From Myxococcota bacterium (GTDB lineage Bacteria > Myxococcota > XYA12-FULL-58-9 > JABJBS01): a stretch of 25,404 nucleotides of DNA. Where the stretch lies: the NCBI GenBank assembly GCA_036339465.1, contig JAYZAY010000077.1, forward strand, positions 1 to 25,404, in the 5' to 3' direction. The position numbers are program-made. Within the stretch, counting starts at the first letter, position 1. Each line of letters opens with the position of its first letter. Positions 18,001 to 24,000 of the stretch are shown in pieces.

Positions 18001-21000
18001 AAAAAAACCGATGTTTTTAATTTGTTGAGCTTGGTTTTTTTTTGAATGGAAGTAACGATGTCGAAACCAACAATTCTAGGCATCACGGGATCTGCCACGA
18101 CGCAGTCAGGCTCGAACTGGATGATTTCCCCCAATGCTTTGGTTCTTTTGGCTGTAAACTCTACGGTGTGACCGGCGTCCTTTAATGCTAAAGATTGAAG
18201 TCGTAATATGTTAAGGTCATTATCGATAATAAATGCCTTGAGTGGGTTAGCTGTCTGCCCCGCTTTGTCTGTGCTTTTGAAGGCGGTCTTGATTTCCTGT
18301 GAACCAAATCGAAACTTTTATTTTGCTCTTGATTCGAGAGTATCGCCGGGAGTGACCGATTGGGTTTTATGTCCACAATTAGGACAGAGTTTTGTGTCTT
18401 TCGGATTCTTTATGCCACATTGAGAGCACGGTATTTGTTTATTGGATCCCGCAGGCATCGGTGCCCTACCTCTCCCAATGATAATTTTTTCGAATTCGAA
18501 AAGAGGGAGCACGCTTTGATGAAATTTTAATCACTATTTAATCGGGTGTAGCTTTTCAAAAGTACGCTTACACCTGCTTCTATTGGTGTTGTTCAAGATA
18601 AATACAAGTAAAGTCATGAGTATAGACCTGTCTGAATGGGCATTGGAAATGGCACAATTGCAGCCAACTAGCCTGTCCCATGGATGGGCCGATTTTTGGA
18701 TGGGGAGAGGTGGTTTTGATTTGGAAATTAACCAAACCAAACAACAGGATGCGTATGGAAAAGTGCGGTGAGAAGTGTGATGACAAAAATAACTGTTGCG
18801 CCGCCCGATGAAGCTTCACAGAGAGTGGCCAATTTGGGGGTTGGGTTTGAAATAAACTTAATGAATGTTCCAAAACCTAAGAGAATGGCTAAGCTCAATG
18901 GGATCCACCAACCCCAGGTTGGCGCGGTTGGTAATATCAGCTCGAGAATGTTGAAAGCCAAGAATGCATTGAGCACGACGAAAATACAGAGGGTCATAGG
19001 AGCACCCTTTAGACCTAGCACCTTGGTGTATGAATCGATGGTGTCGCGTTCGTCTTGTGGAGCTTTGATTTTGCGGCTTACTTCCCCGGCAAAAGAGGTG
19101 AAGAAACCCAGTGTTACTATCCAAAGGGTTGGTTCTATGGGAAGTGGGGCATCATGTGCGGCCATGGTCATATACCATACGAACGCGATGGGAACGACGA
19201 GCATATGGGAAATGGCATAGAGGAACAGCCGTTTTTCGAGCCACGCGCCGAGAAAGAATTCCTTTGCCATCAATAGGCTCCAGCCAATGGTGATGAACCA
19301 GATTTGGGTGATCGGGCCCATTCCTCCGTCTAGGTAGAGGGAGACCGAAAGTTGAATGCAGATCCCGAGGGCTCCGACCTTTTTCAGATCGCTCAAGGTG
19401 ATGATACCGCTTTGAAGCACTCGATTGGGGTGATTTTGGCAATCCAGTTCATAGTCTTTATGTTCATCGAATACGCGAAGCATCAAATAAAAAAACCAGC
19501 ACGCCAGGTATCCCAAAATTTGAGGAATTCCAATTTCCAACGATTCCTTGCCAATCAAATGTTGGGCGTAAAGGTGGGGCAAGAGAAAGACGAGCAAGAA
19601 AGCGATGGCGGTTGCCGGTGGGAACCGTTCATTCATCCAACCGAGAAATCGGCTTGGAAAGGGGCTGTTTTTGCTGAGGGGCTGATTCGACATGTTTCAA
19701 TGTTCCTGTTTTGCTCAATGCGTTCGTGACGTTTGATTGTGATATTCACCGAATCTTTTCGTAAATCGGCTTTGGGTGCAACTTTTGCACCGCGATACTC
19801 GTGTGCAATTACTGCCACGAAATAATCAAAATGCCGATAGGGTCTAAGGCTACATCTGCGAAGAGATTAAACCATGCCGAGATGGATAAAGACGAAGGCA
19901 AAAAAGAAAGCGTGGATGGCGCTTGAGTTGTTCATCATGCTCTCACAGAAAGAGCAAGAGACTAATCTTCCAAATATTCCGTTGCATGTGGATCGAGTTT
20001 AATCATTCTTCGTAAATTCATGTAGACGTGTTCGATGAAACCATAATTTCTGAAGGTGTGTGCCATGAGATACATGGCCAAGCGATTGATTCCGAAATCC
20101 CGGACGGCGAGTGAAAATCCTCTCTTCCAAGTGTCTTGGTCAATCTTGTCACCGGTGGCGCTCTCAAGTTTGCGGCGATGGCGTTCGGAATATTTTACGA
20201 TGAGTTCGTAGTCGTAGTTCCGCGGCAGGGTGAAACATAGAAACTCTACCAAATCTCTTTGAGGGATGTGGAGCGTGGCGAGTTCCCAGTCGTATGCACA
20301 CAATCTTAGGTTGTCATTGGCGTCTTTTCGAAAGCACATATTTCTGGGGTTAAAGTCGTTATGGATTAGGGTTCTTGGCATTTTCTCGATTTCGGACCAC
20401 CACTCTCCGATGTTGGAAACTATCTTCTGGTGAACGGAGAGATCGCCATGGCTGAACCAATCTGGAAACTCTTGGTAGGCGTGATACGCGAGGGTTTCCC
20501 ACAGGCTGTGCATTTCTTGCATGTCGTTGGCGGTCATGACGGTTCCCAGCCACTCTTGTTGTTGTAACTCTTCTTCTCGCCTCCACCAGATGGATTGGAG
20601 CTCAGCTAGGCCATCGATGGCTGCATTGATATGTTTGTCTGTCCAGTTAGTGGTATCATCGGCGGTATTGATGAGTTCCATATTGTCGAGTTTTTCCATA
20701 ACCACAGCGTAGGCTTCTCGGGTGTCGTCTCGAAAAGTGCGGTAAATTTCCGGTGTGTATCGGAGGAAGCGTGGATCCGATTGTTCATAAATTGCCAGTT
20801 CCCGAATATGGCATTTCTGGAAGCCAAGGCGGTGTTTATTCTTGTCGTGAGCAGATGCGAGTTTGGCGTCGCACATCCGGGCCATGGCATTCACCATCAC
20901 AATCACTTCCTGATCATTGGGTTTAATTTTGATCAAGACTTCTTGTTCTGTCTGACCGCTTTTTGCGTGACTGAGGCTTAGCTTGAAAGGAAAGAGTCCT

Positions 21001-24000
21001 ACCAATTTCTTTACTCGGCGAGCTGTCAGTTCAGTGATAATACTACTTCCCATCTTCATTTCGATGGGCTCTACCTTATGGACTTGAATGCCGGTATCTT
21101 GCAGGAGCTTTTGTACGCCGGGGGTGAAGAAAGCGGGGGTGAGGTCTTTGGCGGTAAACCAATCGACAGGTCGGTTGCGTCCCAGTCGCTCGTGGGCCGA
21201 CGCGAATTGGCCGCTTGCTACGGCCGAGAGCGTCGAGAGGTCTAGGGCCAAACAGAATCCCGCGATAATTTCAGCCAACCGTCCCGATTTTCGGACGCCT
21301 GCGCAATCGAGTATTTCTAGATAGTTTTGTTGGTGGGGCAGATTGGTTCCGCCTCCCACACTTCCCACAATGAGCGCGGGTAGGTCCATTGAGGCGTAGA
21401 GCCCGTCGTCGATTGATTCGATGACCAATTGCCCGATGGAAGATTCATGAACAGAGGCGATGTCTTGTCCTGTGGCTGTAAACATAGCCCCGATAACGTT
21501 GGCAATGTTGATGTTGTAACCCAGCGTTCCGATGGCCACGCTTCCACGAAGGCTACGTTTGTACATATCTTCCAGTTGATCTGGGTCTACTTTCAAGATT
21601 TTCCTGAGAATCGGTCCGGGTATGAAACATTCCGCAGTGACTCGGGTTCCTCGACCCAGTAGGTAAGATTGAAAATTGGCTTTCTTATCGCCACTCATAT
21701 TGGCATCGATGACGAAGTTTTGAATCTGAATGTCTGGGAAGTGGGTCATTTGTTCAAGAATCCAATTGCATGCCTTCCAGGTGCAGGTGGTGGTCATGTT
21801 TTGACCGGCCGCGTCTCCTGTTTCGTAGATGAAATGGGCATTGATGTCAGAGCCTACTTGATTGGGATAAACTTCTTTGAGGTTGGCGTAATTAGAGACC
21901 AACCGGGTTTGAGCTCGGATTTCATCGATATGATCGGTCATCCAGTCTCTTAGTTTACTGGCTTGTTCGGTGTTGCCCAATCTAAAGTAGGGCACCCGAA
22001 TCATCCTTTGTCTTAGGACCTTGGTTTGAACACCTCCCCCTTCGGTGATGGCGGTGGCGCCGCGTGTGGCCGAAGCCACCAGGGCACCTTCCGAAGTTCC
22101 CATGGGCGCATAGATGATACCCCGAACATTTTGGCCTCGGAAGAAAAGTGGGCCAGCCAAACCAACCGGGATTTCAACGCTACCCACGAGGTTTTCGATG
22201 TTTCCTGTTAACTTTTCCACTGGAAGACTCGTGTTTGTTATCTTATCTAATTTCTGTCCCGTGAATTCCCGAATGAAGGTGAGCCGCTCTTGACGTGCCT
22301 CTTCGGTATAATGGCCTCTGGCTGGGATTTTTTGAATCGAGTCGGGGATTTCTCCGGTGTCATATTCTTCGGCCGATTTCACGTTTTTCAATTCGCGAAA
22401 AATCTGCCATAAGCAGGAGCGACTGTCGGCATCGGATGCTTCGAGCCCCAGGACCCATGAGTCAGCGTCAGCGTCTTTAATGTGGCGAATGACCATGAGG
22501 CGAAGCGTCCGATTCAGTGTGGCTGTTCCTACCACGATGTTCTTTAAAAGCGTTCCCGCAGAGGGGATATTCGATATGTCTTTTGAAACCGAGACCGCAA
22601 CTCTAATGCCGACGCCGCCGGTTGAGATATCGAGAACTTTTCCAAGTACCCGCTCATTGCCTAGAGTAAGCACCACATAAGCACTTCGCATACCTCCGTA
22701 GGTATCGTCTGTTTCATCCATGGTGATTCGGTGGTGCGTGCGGTTGTCAATGACAGACATGCTTTGCTCCTTCTAACGACACTTTTGTTATCGTCATGAA
22801 GTCGAGGTGAATTTAACCGCTTATAAGGCGTTTTCAGGTTGAAACGATATTTCTTAGTAAGTTTTTCAAGAAATGGAGTTTCAACCAAGGATCTTAGTAA
22901 GGAATTGTGTGTATTTGGCGGAGAAGTGGTGGCTTACTCTTTAAGTGGCCGAAATCACGTTGGTTTATTCTCTTTCTTACTGTGTTTTGTGAGGCGCATG
23001 CCAACGGAGTTTTTGGGGCGTAGGGTAATGGAGGGATGTAGCTTCAGTTGGAAGTCATCGGCCAATCTGAAGTCATAGTTTTTGAGAATCAGAGCAAGAA
23101 CAATACTGGCTTCTAAGAACGCAAACTCTCTTCCGATGCAGAGTCGTTGCCCCGCTCCAAAGGGGATAAATGCGTAACGTTTTTCCCCTCGAGGTTCATT
23201 CTGCTCAAATCTTTCCGGCCAGAACTTTTCGGGGTCTGTGTAGAGATCTGGGTTTCGGTGAAGCGCGTAGGGGCTAATGCTGACGCTTGCGCCTTTGGGA
23301 ATTTTCACACCGCAAACGACGTCATCTTCAGTGGCTTTTCGACCCATGAGCCATATGGGGGGATAGAGGCGAAGGCTCTCTTGAAGTACGAGATTGAGAT
23401 AGGGGAGTAGGGAAAGGTTTTCCAAATTGGGTGGTCTGTCTATGCATACTTCTTCGATTTCTCGTCGGAGTTTTTCTTTGCATTTTGGGTTTTTGGCGAG
23501 GAGGAGGAGTGTCCAGGTTAAGAGGGCCGCGGTGGTATCGTGGCCGGCGAGGAATACGGTCATGACTTCGTCACGTATTTGTTGGTCATTCATGCAATAA
23601 CCTTCTTCTTCATCTTGGGTACGAATCAATTCGTCTAAAAGGTCGTTTCTCGGTTTTTCTTCTTTTCGTCGCTGGGCAATCATTCCCATGACCACCGTAT
23701 CGAGTTTACTTAAGAGCGTGTCAAATTGCTCTGATTGGGGTTTCATTCGGTTGAGTACCTTTCCCAAGGGGCCTCGTCCTGCGTCCAATAGATGCATGAT
23801 TTTGTCGATGGATTGGGTGACCTTATCGGCCTCGCCTTCAACCGAGGTGCCAAACATGGTTTGACTGATAACCGACATGGTAATGCGCGTCATTTCTTTG
23901 AAATAGTCAACGGGGCTCCCCGTTTTGGTGGCTTCGGTCCATGTTGAAAATCGAGCCCTGGTTACGGATTCCGTAATTTCTGCGACTCGGAGCATATGCT

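Follow-up and report, generated by a model that had tools for sequence, protein, structure and literature searches.

Archaeal phospholipid assembly uses a UbiA-type DGGGP synthase, CarS and CDP-alcohol phosphatidyltransferases, and in the Kennedy pathway a choline-kinase-fold kinase is followed by a CDP-alcohol phosphotransferase. Class I HMG-CoA reductases (HMGRs) are represented by structures from Methanothermococcus thermolithotrophicus (6hr7), human (1dq8) and Arabidopsis (7uli). In the order to which the genome studied here belongs, a class II HMGR and a GHMP mevalonate kinase (MVK) are joined in one protein, which is encoded in an MDD-PMK-HMGR::MVK-IDI operon. The kinase domains of ACAD10 and ACAD11 have an APH fold and carry a DWE metal-site motif; published accounts describe them as 4-hydroxyacyl-CoA and 1-O-alkylglycerol kinases, report that ACAD10-type kinases with this motif phosphorylate lipid alcohols, and place the DWE motif in contact with acetyl-CoA in a model. 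Here, we describe a gene that joins a class I HMGR-type domain to an APH-fold kinase. We read its product as the hallmark enzyme of a widespread but uncharacterised set of genes, in which a UbiA transferase and a rifampin-phosphotransferase (RPH)-like dikinase are its constant partners.

Architecture of the fusion protein

The window, i.e. the whole stretch of 25,404 nucleotides that was analysed from a Myxococcota genome, contains a fusion gene (19962..22760, minus strand) encoding a PilZ-like domain, a class I HMGR-type reductase and an APH-fold kinase. ORF analysis, translation from an ATG start and Pfam matches all agree with an earlier note on this DNA regarding position, length (932 aa) and three-part architecture, and we read the product as a soluble three-domain enzyme. 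A database search yielded 2513 proteins at E ≤ 0.001 (8000 scored), and most of the best 120 are 890–935 aa long. Residue invariance was assessed in our own alignment of 30 homologues, in which the inter-domain junction G527-R-N-R-P531 is strictly kept.

The HMGR-type domain (residues 156–528; 21177..22295, minus strand) matches Pfam HMG-CoA_red (PF00368) with an E-value of 3.6e-106 and is assigned to class I by TIGR00533 (285 bits vs 36 bits for TIGR00532), a score that nevertheless lies below the NCBIfam class I equivalog cut-off of 441.8 bits. The best PDB match of the fusion is HMGR 6hr7 (sequence E 1.1e-74, profile E 1.7e-109), and identity to class I HMGRs amounts to 40–60%. The catalytic set (E224, K359, D433, H523) is intact and, together with D358 and K360, invariant in 30/30 homologues, while the equivalents of the HMG-contact residues R590, D690, K691, K692 and N755 are all kept. 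In a tree of HMGR domains, 39 fused genes form one clade (SH-aLRT 99) apart from 38 stand-alone class I HMGRs; this clade also includes one copy cut by a contig end and three actinomycete orphans that lack the kinase. It is spread over many phyla and distinguished by 16 clade-specific columns, among them the H752 equivalent, which is N in 29/30 homologues, and the K704 equivalent, which is T, I or V.

The C-terminal part (residues 534–932; 19965..21161, minus strand) is an APH/EcKL-fold small-molecule kinase, with Pfam matches to APH (668–857; E 3.4e-7, 30.7 bits vs a cut-off of 23.2), DUF1679 (619–846) and EcKL (638–849). It contains an HxDxxxxN motif (H800NDFNPRN807), D824WE826 and K611/K613; H800, D802, N807, D824, W825 and E826, previously described as invariant, proved so in our separate alignment as well, and motif reading and alignment likewise support the claim that both catalytic sets are intact. 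The PDB sequence searches of the earlier note were reproduced, with 6hr7 at the top and the kinase region of ACAD11 (8v3v) as best non-HMGR match (profile E 0.0024 over 63 residues). ESM Atlas matches to APH domains reach TM values of up to 0.92, and in the nearest structures the APH domain is attached to an NAD_binding_4-type reductase, an arrangement that may represent an analogous reductase-kinase pairing and is taken as a lead only.

The N-terminal domain (residues 1–135; 22356..22760, minus strand) had been presented as a PilZ domain, which holds with regard to motifs and predicted fold. RxxxR (R7THHR11) and DxSxxG (D44ISTGG49) are intact, the positions given earlier for these and the kinase motifs (residues 7–11, 44–49, 800–807 and 824–826) were found again in the sequence, and in the ESM Atlas model of exactly this protein residues 1–136 resemble PilZ clusters in all seven matches listed (TM 0.65–0.71). 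The sequence support, however, is weaker than claimed: a Pfam search with the whole fusion protein gave no PilZ match at E ≤ 0.01, residues 1–135 alone score 21.0 bits against PF07238 (E 4.4e-4), below the cut-off of 22.5, and hhalign against one stand-alone PilZ protein covers 38 columns with a probability of 36% (E 3.8e-4). The score below the Pfam cut-off counts against the function proposed below. Among 102 homologues with an N-domain of at least 100 aa, drawn from the 120 best matches, 31 carry both motifs at normal spacing and 40 carry neither. With intact motifs only in this minority, c-di-GMP control does not appear to be a general trait and is likely in some lineages only. The genome encodes 12 GGDEF domains, and the motifs of the protein studied here suggest c-di-GMP binding, so that in this lineage the first step is probably governed by c-di-GMP. 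A literature search found no PilZ-HMGR fusion.

Gene neighbourhood and phyletic co-occurrence

Directly downstream of the fusion, on the same strand and after a gap of 268 nt, lies a gene for a UbiA-family membrane transferase (18728..19693, minus strand). It scores 131.8 bits against the NCBIfam prenyltransferase PRK05951, under the cut-off of that model, its orthologues at other loci match Pfam UbiA, and its sole PDB match is DGGGP synthase (6m31, E 0.007). The window also encodes a 937-aa dikinase (12057..14870, plus strand) with PPDK_N and PEP-utiliser (swivel His) domains but no PEP/pyruvate barrel, which resembles rifampin phosphotransferases (PDB 5hv2 and 5fbs, E 1.6e-73). Further genes encode an MMPL/RND transporter with a sterol-sensing-type domain (3766..6159, plus strand; Pfam MMPL, Patched and Sterol-sensing), which is likely the lipid exporter of the gene set, and a LolA-like periplasmic lipid-carrier protein (1578..2450, plus strand; Pfam LolA_like, E 6.8e-61).

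At 38 loci from many phyla, genes near the fusion encode UbiA (23), dikinase (22), AMP-binding (16), CDP-OH-PT/CarS-like (13), GNAT-like (12), MMPL (9), DUF3419 (6) and LolA-like (6) proteins; acyl-CoA ligases, GNAT-like, CDP-alcohol phosphatidyltransferase, CarS-like and DUF3419 proteins and MMPL/LolA-like exporters are frequent additions to the two constant partners. Of the 24 loci in which the fusion is flanked by 5 kb or more in each direction, 18 have UbiA, 17 the dikinase and 16 both; the five with neither partner nearby count against a lipid role. In a sample of 151 genomes of the phylum, all seven carriers of the fusion have orthologues of both partners, compared with 1/144 genomes without it. 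Within the family, UbiA adjoins the dikinase in two genomes (G001, G003) and the fusion adjoins the dikinase in two others (G004, G005), while in the source genome it adjoins UbiA.

Upstream of the fusion, on the same strand, follow a cytochrome P450 gene (22955..24340, minus strand; gap of 194 nt; Pfam p450, E 1.1e-93) and, 3 nt further upstream, an alpha/beta hydrolase gene (24344..25252, minus strand; Abhydrolase_1, E 4e-29). Neither the P450 nor an orthologue of the hydrolase was found beside the fusion at 37 other loci or in four relatives, and their association with it is specific to the source genome. Neither the CarS-like nor the GNAT-like gene of the set is present in the source genome, and its AMP-binding and DUF3419 homologues are on other contigs than the fusion; this, too, counts against a lipid role.

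Mevalonate and MEP genes

The statement that the fusion is the only isoprenoid-precursor gene in the assembly (completeness 92.8%) withstood our searches: PF00368 has one match, IspH, IspG, MDD and HMG-CoA synthase (HMGS) have none, the MVK search returned only a heptose-kinase-like GHMP protein, and nothing matched profiles made from MDD, PMK, HMGR::MVK and IDI of the relatives. This result leaves a housekeeping role of the fusion in the source genome conceivable. All five family relatives keep the canonical mevalonate (MVA) operon, and four of them also encode a full-length fusion (in the fifth, G004, only a piece of the kinase domain is present, at a contig end). Since HMGS and the operon lie on different contigs in the relatives, two loci are missing here; an assembly gap, the caveat of the earlier note itself, is the likeliest reason, if a tentative one given two separate loci.

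Control of the committed MVA step by c-di-GMP, as proposed in the earlier note, is not supported in view of these relatives, the PilZ motifs that only a minority of the family keeps, the steady association of the fusion with UbiA and the dikinase rather than MVA genes, and the occurrence of the fused clade in MEP genomes, where IspH was found in 5/5 tested carriers and HMGS or MDD over cut-offs in 0/5. HMG-CoA lyase is present in three of these five.

Proposed function and alternative explanations

It seems about an even call whether the fusion, instead of being a housekeeping HMGR, combines a thioester reductase and an alcohol kinase serving a membrane-lipid gene set. We infer substrate, step order and product as follows: the HMGR-type domain would reduce HMG-CoA or a closely similar CoA thioester to a primary alcohol, and the ACAD10-like kinase, part of the same protein, would phosphorylate that alcohol; the phosphate ester may then pass to the dikinase and the UbiA enzyme, which would build from it a membrane lipid or lipid head group for export, and the PilZ domain, with its motifs intact in this lineage, would probably subject the reductase step to c-di-GMP. 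The fusion is most naturally read as a kinase acting on the product of the reductase, and this part of the earlier interpretation stands along with architecture and catalytic sets.

The retained catalytic and HMG-contact residues count against the lipid role, as the substrate may simply be HMG-CoA. Together with the identity to class I HMGRs, the identical domain order of the relatives' class II HMGR::GHMP fusion and the HMG-CoA lyase of three carriers, which therefore make HMG-CoA, they favour a true HMGR with a non-GHMP mevalonate kinase, whose mevalonate 5-phosphate would enter a UbiA/dikinase backbone or head group and not IPP supply. We regard this as possible but rather unlikely, given the clade-specific pocket changes (H752 to N), the missed equivalog cut-off, and Photorhabdus khanii and Paenibacillus oenotherae, in which neither HMGS nor HMG-CoA lyase was found over cut-offs. 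Much less probable is the earlier reading in full, i.e. a c-di-GMP-gated committed isoprenoid step that is the sole route here after loss of the canonical pathway. The 92.8%-complete assembly, in which no other MEP/MVA gene was found, the two missing loci, two polyprenyl synthases, which need precursors, and an orthologue of the gene flanking the operon in G001 and G002 that lies mid-contig without the operon all speak for it; against it stand the operon in every relative, its different flanks in G003 and G005 and the fused clade in MEP genomes. Moreover, no enzyme leading from phosphomevalonate to IPP was found in the assembly, so that missing or unknown genes have to be assumed either way.

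The kinase could also act on a hydroxyacyl-CoA as ACAD10/11 do, or the HMGR domain could work oxidatively (alcohol to acyl-CoA) before the kinase phosphorylates the hydroxyl of the CoA ester. The ACAD11 match, the shared DWE motif with its modelled acetyl-CoA contact and the 4-hydroxyacyl-CoA substrates reported for ACAD10/11 point this way, but the match is weak, the HYDxK motif of ACAD10 reads HNDFN in the fusion, and an ACAD-type eliminating domain is neither part of the fusion nor conserved nearby at the 38 loci, which makes this option improbable, if less so than the sole-route reading. Protein kinases are related to the APH fold, and phosphorylation near the catalytic His regulates eukaryotic HMGR; a regulatory protein kinase phosphorylating the reductase, like AMPK on eukaryotic class I HMGR, still appears extremely unlikely, as all family matches are small-molecule kinases (APH, EcKL, DUF1679) and both the conserved junction and the pathway-type partner genes are in line with a metabolic enzyme.

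Comparison with known systems

The reductase domain shares the fold family, the catalytic E, K, D and H and the R590, D690, K692 and N755 equivalents of class I HMGRs. It differs from them in its separate clade with signature columns, its score below the equivalog cut-off, the attached kinase and often an N-terminal domain, and its presence in genomes that have the MEP pathway but no other MVA genes. The kinase domain resembles ACAD10/ACAD11, whose own substrates are reported to be lipid alcohols; the sequence similarity is marginal, the beta3 residue is Lys instead of Arg, and the partner is a reductase instead of ACAD or HAD domains. Relative to YcgR-type and stand-alone PilZ receptors, the N-domain has RxxxR, D/NxSxxG and a matching predicted fold, but it scores under the Pfam cut-off, and has a 33-residue spacing with an insertion, and most family members have degenerate motifs.

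The wider cluster recalls archaeal phospholipid assembly and the Kennedy pathway in its UbiA-family enzyme, CarS-like protein, CDP-alcohol phosphatidyltransferase and choline-kinase-fold kinase, and the weak DGGGP synthase match is in keeping with this; in contrast to the archaeal route, it contains no GGGP synthase and no evident glycerol-phosphate step, and a CarS-like gene is absent from the source genome. A parallel in architecture is the class II HMGR::GHMP mevalonate kinase of the same order, which shares the genome with a full-length APH-type fusion in four of the five family relatives. Both place reductase and kinase in this order on one polypeptide, and the kinase at the same end fits action on the reductase's product. 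Their halves, however, are non-homologous (class II vs class I HMGR, GHMP vs APH fold), and the former is found among MVA genes, whereas the APH-type fusion keeps company with UbiA and the dikinase.

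Domain architecture of the fusion and its place among HMG-CoA reductases

HMG-CoA reductase (HMGR) is among the best-studied enzymes. The fusion gene belongs to a large bacterial HMGR clade without a described function, in which the reductase typically carries a fused kinase and goes together with a UbiA transferase and a dikinase. A literature search returned no paper on this fusion or gene cluster, and the parts of the Lipocone paper that were available mention only a neighbourhood of HMGR and a GHMP kinase.

The gene (19962-22760, minus strand) is an open reading frame with an ATG start that encodes a protein of 932 aa. 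Residues 156-528 were assigned by Pfam to HMG-CoA_red (PF00368; E 3.6e-106, 355.7 bits versus a cut-off of 27). Based on NCBIfam, the reductase is of the class I type (TIGR00533, 285 bits; class II model TIGR00532, 36 bits), with a score below the TIGR00533 equivalog cut-off of 441.8 for the NADPH enzyme. Conservation was assessed in an alignment of 30 homologues at 47-56% identity, in all of which residues E224, D358, K359, K360, D433 and H523 are invariant, as is the junction G527-R-N-R-P531 between the domains. Human numbering was mapped via an AtHMG1 alignment and residue equivalences taken from excerpts of PMC9500038. On this basis, E224, K359, D433 and H523 are equivalent to the human catalytic residues E559, K691, D767 and H866, and of the HMG-contact residues (human R590, S684, D690, K692, K735, H752 and N755), R590, D690, K692 and N755 are kept here as R255, D358, K360 and N421. 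The equivalents of R590, D690, K691, K692 and N755 are invariant in fused and stand-alone groups alike, whereas the H752 equivalent is N in 29/30 fused copies and H in 25/28 stand-alone class I enzymes. The substrate would thus be either HMG-CoA or a close compound, a choice that the sequence alone leaves undecided. The equivalents of S684 and K735 were dropped as marks of a new substrate because they vary in the same way in stand-alone class I enzymes.

A quick IQ-TREE search with 81 HMGR domains placed 39 fused copies in a single clade (SH-aLRT 99), together with three actinomycete copies that lack the kinase and one that is truncated at a contig end; this clade is set against 38 stand-alone class I enzymes with likewise 99 support; 16 alignment columns mark the fused clade. 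The kinase-less actinomycete loci L031, L035 and L052 were considered as true HMGRs of mevalonate (MVA) clusters and rejected, their neighbours being without MVA genes.

The C-terminal part was matched by the Pfam families APH, DUF1679 and EcKL over residues 619-857 (PF01636, 30.7 bits versus a cut-off of 23.2), and K611, K613, H800, D802, N807, D824, W825 and E826 are invariant in 30/30 aligned homologues. With a profile score over the cut-off, the HxDxxxxN loop, the metal Asp and the beta3 Lys, it has the features of the APH/choline-kinase/EcKL fold. No GHMP kinase was found among the Pfam and NCBIfam matches of the fusion protein; the sole TIGR00549 match in the genome sits on another contig (C51), away from the fusion.

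Partner genes in the window and across bacteria

Of 80 loci obtained by scanning species genomes, 37 with full fusions were studied together with the window (38 loci in total); the ORFs of all 38 were clustered and the clusters annotated using Pfam. The loci span Myxococcota, Thermodesulfobacteriota, several Gammaproteobacteria (including four Photorhabdus species), Bacteroidota, Planctomycetota and others, and also include Streptomyces, Nocardia, Actinoplanes and Paenibacillus. Near the fusion, a UbiA-family protein was found at 23/38 loci and a dikinase of ~910 aa with PPDK_N and PEP-utiliser domains at 22/38. Further neighbours were an AMP-binding ligase (16/38), a CDP-alcohol phosphatidyltransferase / CarS-like pair (13/38), a weakly GNAT-like protein of ~380 aa (12/38), an MMPL transporter (9/38), and DUF3419 and LolA-like proteins (6/38 each). 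Of the 24 loci flanked by 5 kb or more on each side, 18 have UbiA, 17 the dikinase, 16 both and 5 neither.

In the window, the UbiA-like gene (18728-19693) lies directly downstream of the fusion, and the dikinase (12057-14870), the MMPL transporter (3766-6159) and the LolA-like gene (1578-2450) are present as well. The best solved relatives of the dikinase are 5hv2 and 5fbs (E 1.6e-73), entries titled phosphoenolpyruvate synthase that we take to be rifampin phosphotransferases; the sole PDB match of the UbiA-like protein is DGGGP synthase 6m31 (E 0.007). Two window ORFs (10593-11702 and 14864-15625) were tried as the GNAT-like protein of the cluster and turned out to be unrelated to it (hhalign probability 0.3% each). 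Orthologues of the P450 and hydrolase genes upstream of the fusion here were found beside the fusion in no other locus or relative examined. DUF3419 lies directly after the fusion in two of four relatives, in line with the earlier note.

Several further features of the window were recorded. The interval from the MMPL transporter to the dikinase (6171-10154) contains a methyltransferase gene along with a LolCDE/MacB-like ABC system of two FtsX-type permeases and one ATPase; these genes could be part of the export arm of the lipid set. A ParA-type ATPase gene is located at 381-1076, and a 1.4 kb stretch without ORFs of at least 100 aa (17317-18727), of lower G+C (0.43-0.47) and without Rfam match, separates the SDF transporter gene from the UbiA-like gene. 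Along the window (1-25404), GC skew stays near 0 for the first ~11 kb; over most of the remainder it is +0.08 to +0.21, with one bin at +0.03; the shift near 11000 is independent of the coding strand. Promoter-like sites are rarer than expected (4 versus 8.8 in shuffles). Near-identical copies of the stretch occur in marine metagenomes from at least three studies, and in RNA run X20 three short contigs with a similarity of 99% or higher all fall inside the gene, although such matches do not show transcription.

In a search of 151 genomes from the phylum, seven were found to carry the kinase domain of the fusion. Five of these belong to the family of this bacterium, and G070 and G107 each represent a further family; because kin are not independent, these carriers represent three or four lineages rather than seven. 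All seven carry orthologues of both the UbiA-like gene (34-47% identity) and the dikinase (49-62% identity), with all three genes on one contig in G070 and in G107, and among the 144 other genomes only one (G079) has both partners. In the relative G004 (74% completeness), fragments were detected at a looser threshold. Within the family, the dikinase has the UbiA-like gene as its neighbour in G001 and G003 but the fusion in G004 and G005, and here the UbiA-like gene is adjacent to the fusion.

G005 has two fusion copies (G005:C1:5949-8249 and G005:C421:2884-4152), the second of which sits at a contig end in convergent orientation with the dikinase. The fusion orthologue of G003 (G003:C403:10063-11241) and the dikinase orthologues of G003 (G003:C390:924-3656) and G070 (G070:C8:42251-44959) match over their full length except that each contains a single in-frame TGA.

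The N-terminal PilZ-like domain

The earlier note had described the N-terminus as a PilZ domain with intact c-di-GMP-binding motifs. Its motif positions were reproduced throughout: RxxxR reads R7THHR11 (residues 7-11) and D/NxSxxG reads D44ISTGG49 (residues 44-49), and in the kinase HNDFNPRN lies at 800-807 and DWE at 824-826. Scanned alone, residues 1-135 match PF07238 with E 4.4e-4 and 21.0 bits, under the gathering cut-off of 22.5, and Pfam reports no PilZ when the whole protein is scanned. In the ESM Atlas model of the exact protein, residues 1-136 match PilZ clusters with TM 0.65-0.71 in 7/7 matches listed; a profile of 18 N-domains compared with a stand-alone PilZ protein from a relative reached a probability of 36%. 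Both motifs are also present in 3/3 aligned copies from family relatives. An N-domain of 100 aa or more is present in 102 of the best 120 database matches, and these 102 show both motifs at normal spacing in 31 cases, RxxxR alone in 23, DxSxxG alone in 7 and neither in 40, which places the fusion here and its three aligned close relatives within the minority keeping both. The domain is probably PilZ by fold, yet the case is weaker than stated earlier.

With 12 GGDEF domains in its genome, the bacterium makes c-di-GMP; an Rfam scan of the window gave no family and thus no c-di-GMP riboswitch there. In some genomes a BtaA-like DUF3419 domain replaces PilZ at the N-terminus of the reductase-kinase (L015:8756-12694, L020:449-4381; P0054, P0066), in proteins of 1167-1312 aa, and the N-terminal slot of the enzyme is consequently variable. 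At the G003 locus, a DAGK_cat lipid-kinase-type gene (L098:7009-8199) precedes the fusion and a stand-alone PilZ protein (L098:11332-11841; PF07238 E 3.5e-9) directly follows it.

Proposed pathway and relation to isoprenoid synthesis

Most likely, the fusion acts as a two-step enzyme that would reduce a CoA thioester to an alcohol and convert this to a phosphate ester. The ester would then pass to another phosphoryl-transfer enzyme and to a membrane transferase; genes for lipid exporters lie nearby. Such an enzyme fits the fusion, its invariant junction and its partners; the steps past the domain assignments are those that we infer. A more specific version, which we consider rather unlikely, is a trio of fusion, dikinase and UbiA-family enzyme that would reduce, phosphorylate, phosphorylate again and transfer, yielding a new bacterial membrane lipid that is switched by c-di-GMP here. 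The HMGR-type domain would turn an acyl-CoA into an alcohol and the fused kinase the alcohol into a monophosphate, the His-swivel dikinase would make the diphosphate, and the UbiA-family enzyme would take this as alkyl donor. If true, the trio would allow a diphosphate-activated lipid building block to be made without the MEP or mevalonate pathway, and its product would represent a new class of bacterial membrane lipid, c-di-GMP-switched in this lineage.

The alternative proposed before, that the fusion catalyses the committed step of the mevalonate pathway under c-di-GMP control, does not agree with the gene content of its carriers. Whole-genome searches were made for five carriers (Photorhabdus khanii, a Moraxellaceae MAG, a Bermanella MAG, Paenibacillus oenotherae and Streptomyces mashuensis). 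All five have IspH, and neither HMG-CoA synthase (HMGS) nor MDD was found over the cut-off in any; HMG-CoA lyase exceeded it in three and is absent from Photorhabdus and Paenibacillus. MVA genes were likewise not found in the 38 fusion neighbourhoods. In the family, a canonical MVA operon (arylformamidase or another flank, then MDD, PMK, HMGR::MVK and IDI) is present in 5/5 relatives, with an HMGR::MVK protein of ~750 aa that joins a class II HMGR to a GHMP mevalonate kinase. The full-length fusion of 920-970 aa accompanies this operon in four of the five, and the fifth (G004) has a contig-end fragment of the fusion's kinase domain only. The class II HMGR::GHMP mevalonate kinase (L009:403-2661, L011:406-2658 and L095:3178-5430, all minus strand) is the housekeeping HMGR of this order, and the majority of the order's 21 searched genomes have an open frame of 750-800 aa.

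What had been said of the fusion as the sole isoprenoid-precursor gene holds for the present assembly (102 contigs totalling 4.17 Mb, completeness 92.8%), in which no other MEP or mevalonate gene was found: searches for IspG, IspH, MDD and HMGS were negative, that for MVK gave nothing beyond a heptose-kinase-like GHMP protein, and profiles built from the relatives' MDD, PMK, HMGR::MVK and IDI had no match. Isoprenoid precursors are nevertheless needed, because the genome has two polyprenyl synthases, and two loci are missing, since in the relatives HMGS is on another contig than the MVA operon. In G001 and G002 the operon is flanked by a gene whose orthologue here is located mid-contig on contig C89 (C89:64799-66010) with the operon absent there, but the operon flanks differ in G003 and G005, so that this flank gives an ambiguous answer on an assembly break. 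An assembly gap is the simplest answer for the missing genes, and it is very improbable in our view that the trio route replaces a lost mevalonate pathway in this genome. Even if the fusion made phosphomevalonate, there is no known enzyme here to take it to IPP.

The family of the fusion counts database members in the thousands. Its carriers include cultured Photorhabdus, Paenibacillus, Streptomyces and Nocardia, so that the question is open to direct testing. Solving its role could uncover a new membrane-lipid pathway and account for the 'orphan' HMGR genes of MEP-using bacteria, and the fusion could be the first case of a PilZ domain coupled directly to a lipid-synthesis enzyme.

Comparison with other reductase-kinase fusions and ACAD10/11-type kinases

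The nearest ESM Atlas structures to residues 534-929 are the APH domains of proteins of 785-863 aa (TM 0.90-0.92), the other part of which is a reductase of the NAD_binding_4/Epimerase type. These proteins may be an analogous reductase-kinase fusion. The NAD_binding_4 family presumably includes thioester reductases; if so, and this is only a lead, one kinase type would have been combined on two occasions with thioester reductases that are unrelated to each other.

At the sequence level, the PDB entry that matches best outside the HMGRs is ACAD11 (8v3v) with its kinase part; at E 0.0024 over only 63 residues, this falls short of establishing similarity to ACAD10/11. As described in excerpts of a preprint (10.1101/2025.09.10.675409), ACAD10-type kinases phosphorylate 1-O-alkylglycerols and have a DWE motif instead of DFG, which contacts acetyl-CoA in a model; ACAD10/11 are reported, likewise in excerpts, to phosphorylate 4-hydroxyacyl-CoAs as well. 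The kinase of the fusion differs from the ACAD10/11 type in its catalytic motif, where HYDxK reads HNDFN, and has in common with it the DWE motif (D824-W-E826), which is invariant here.
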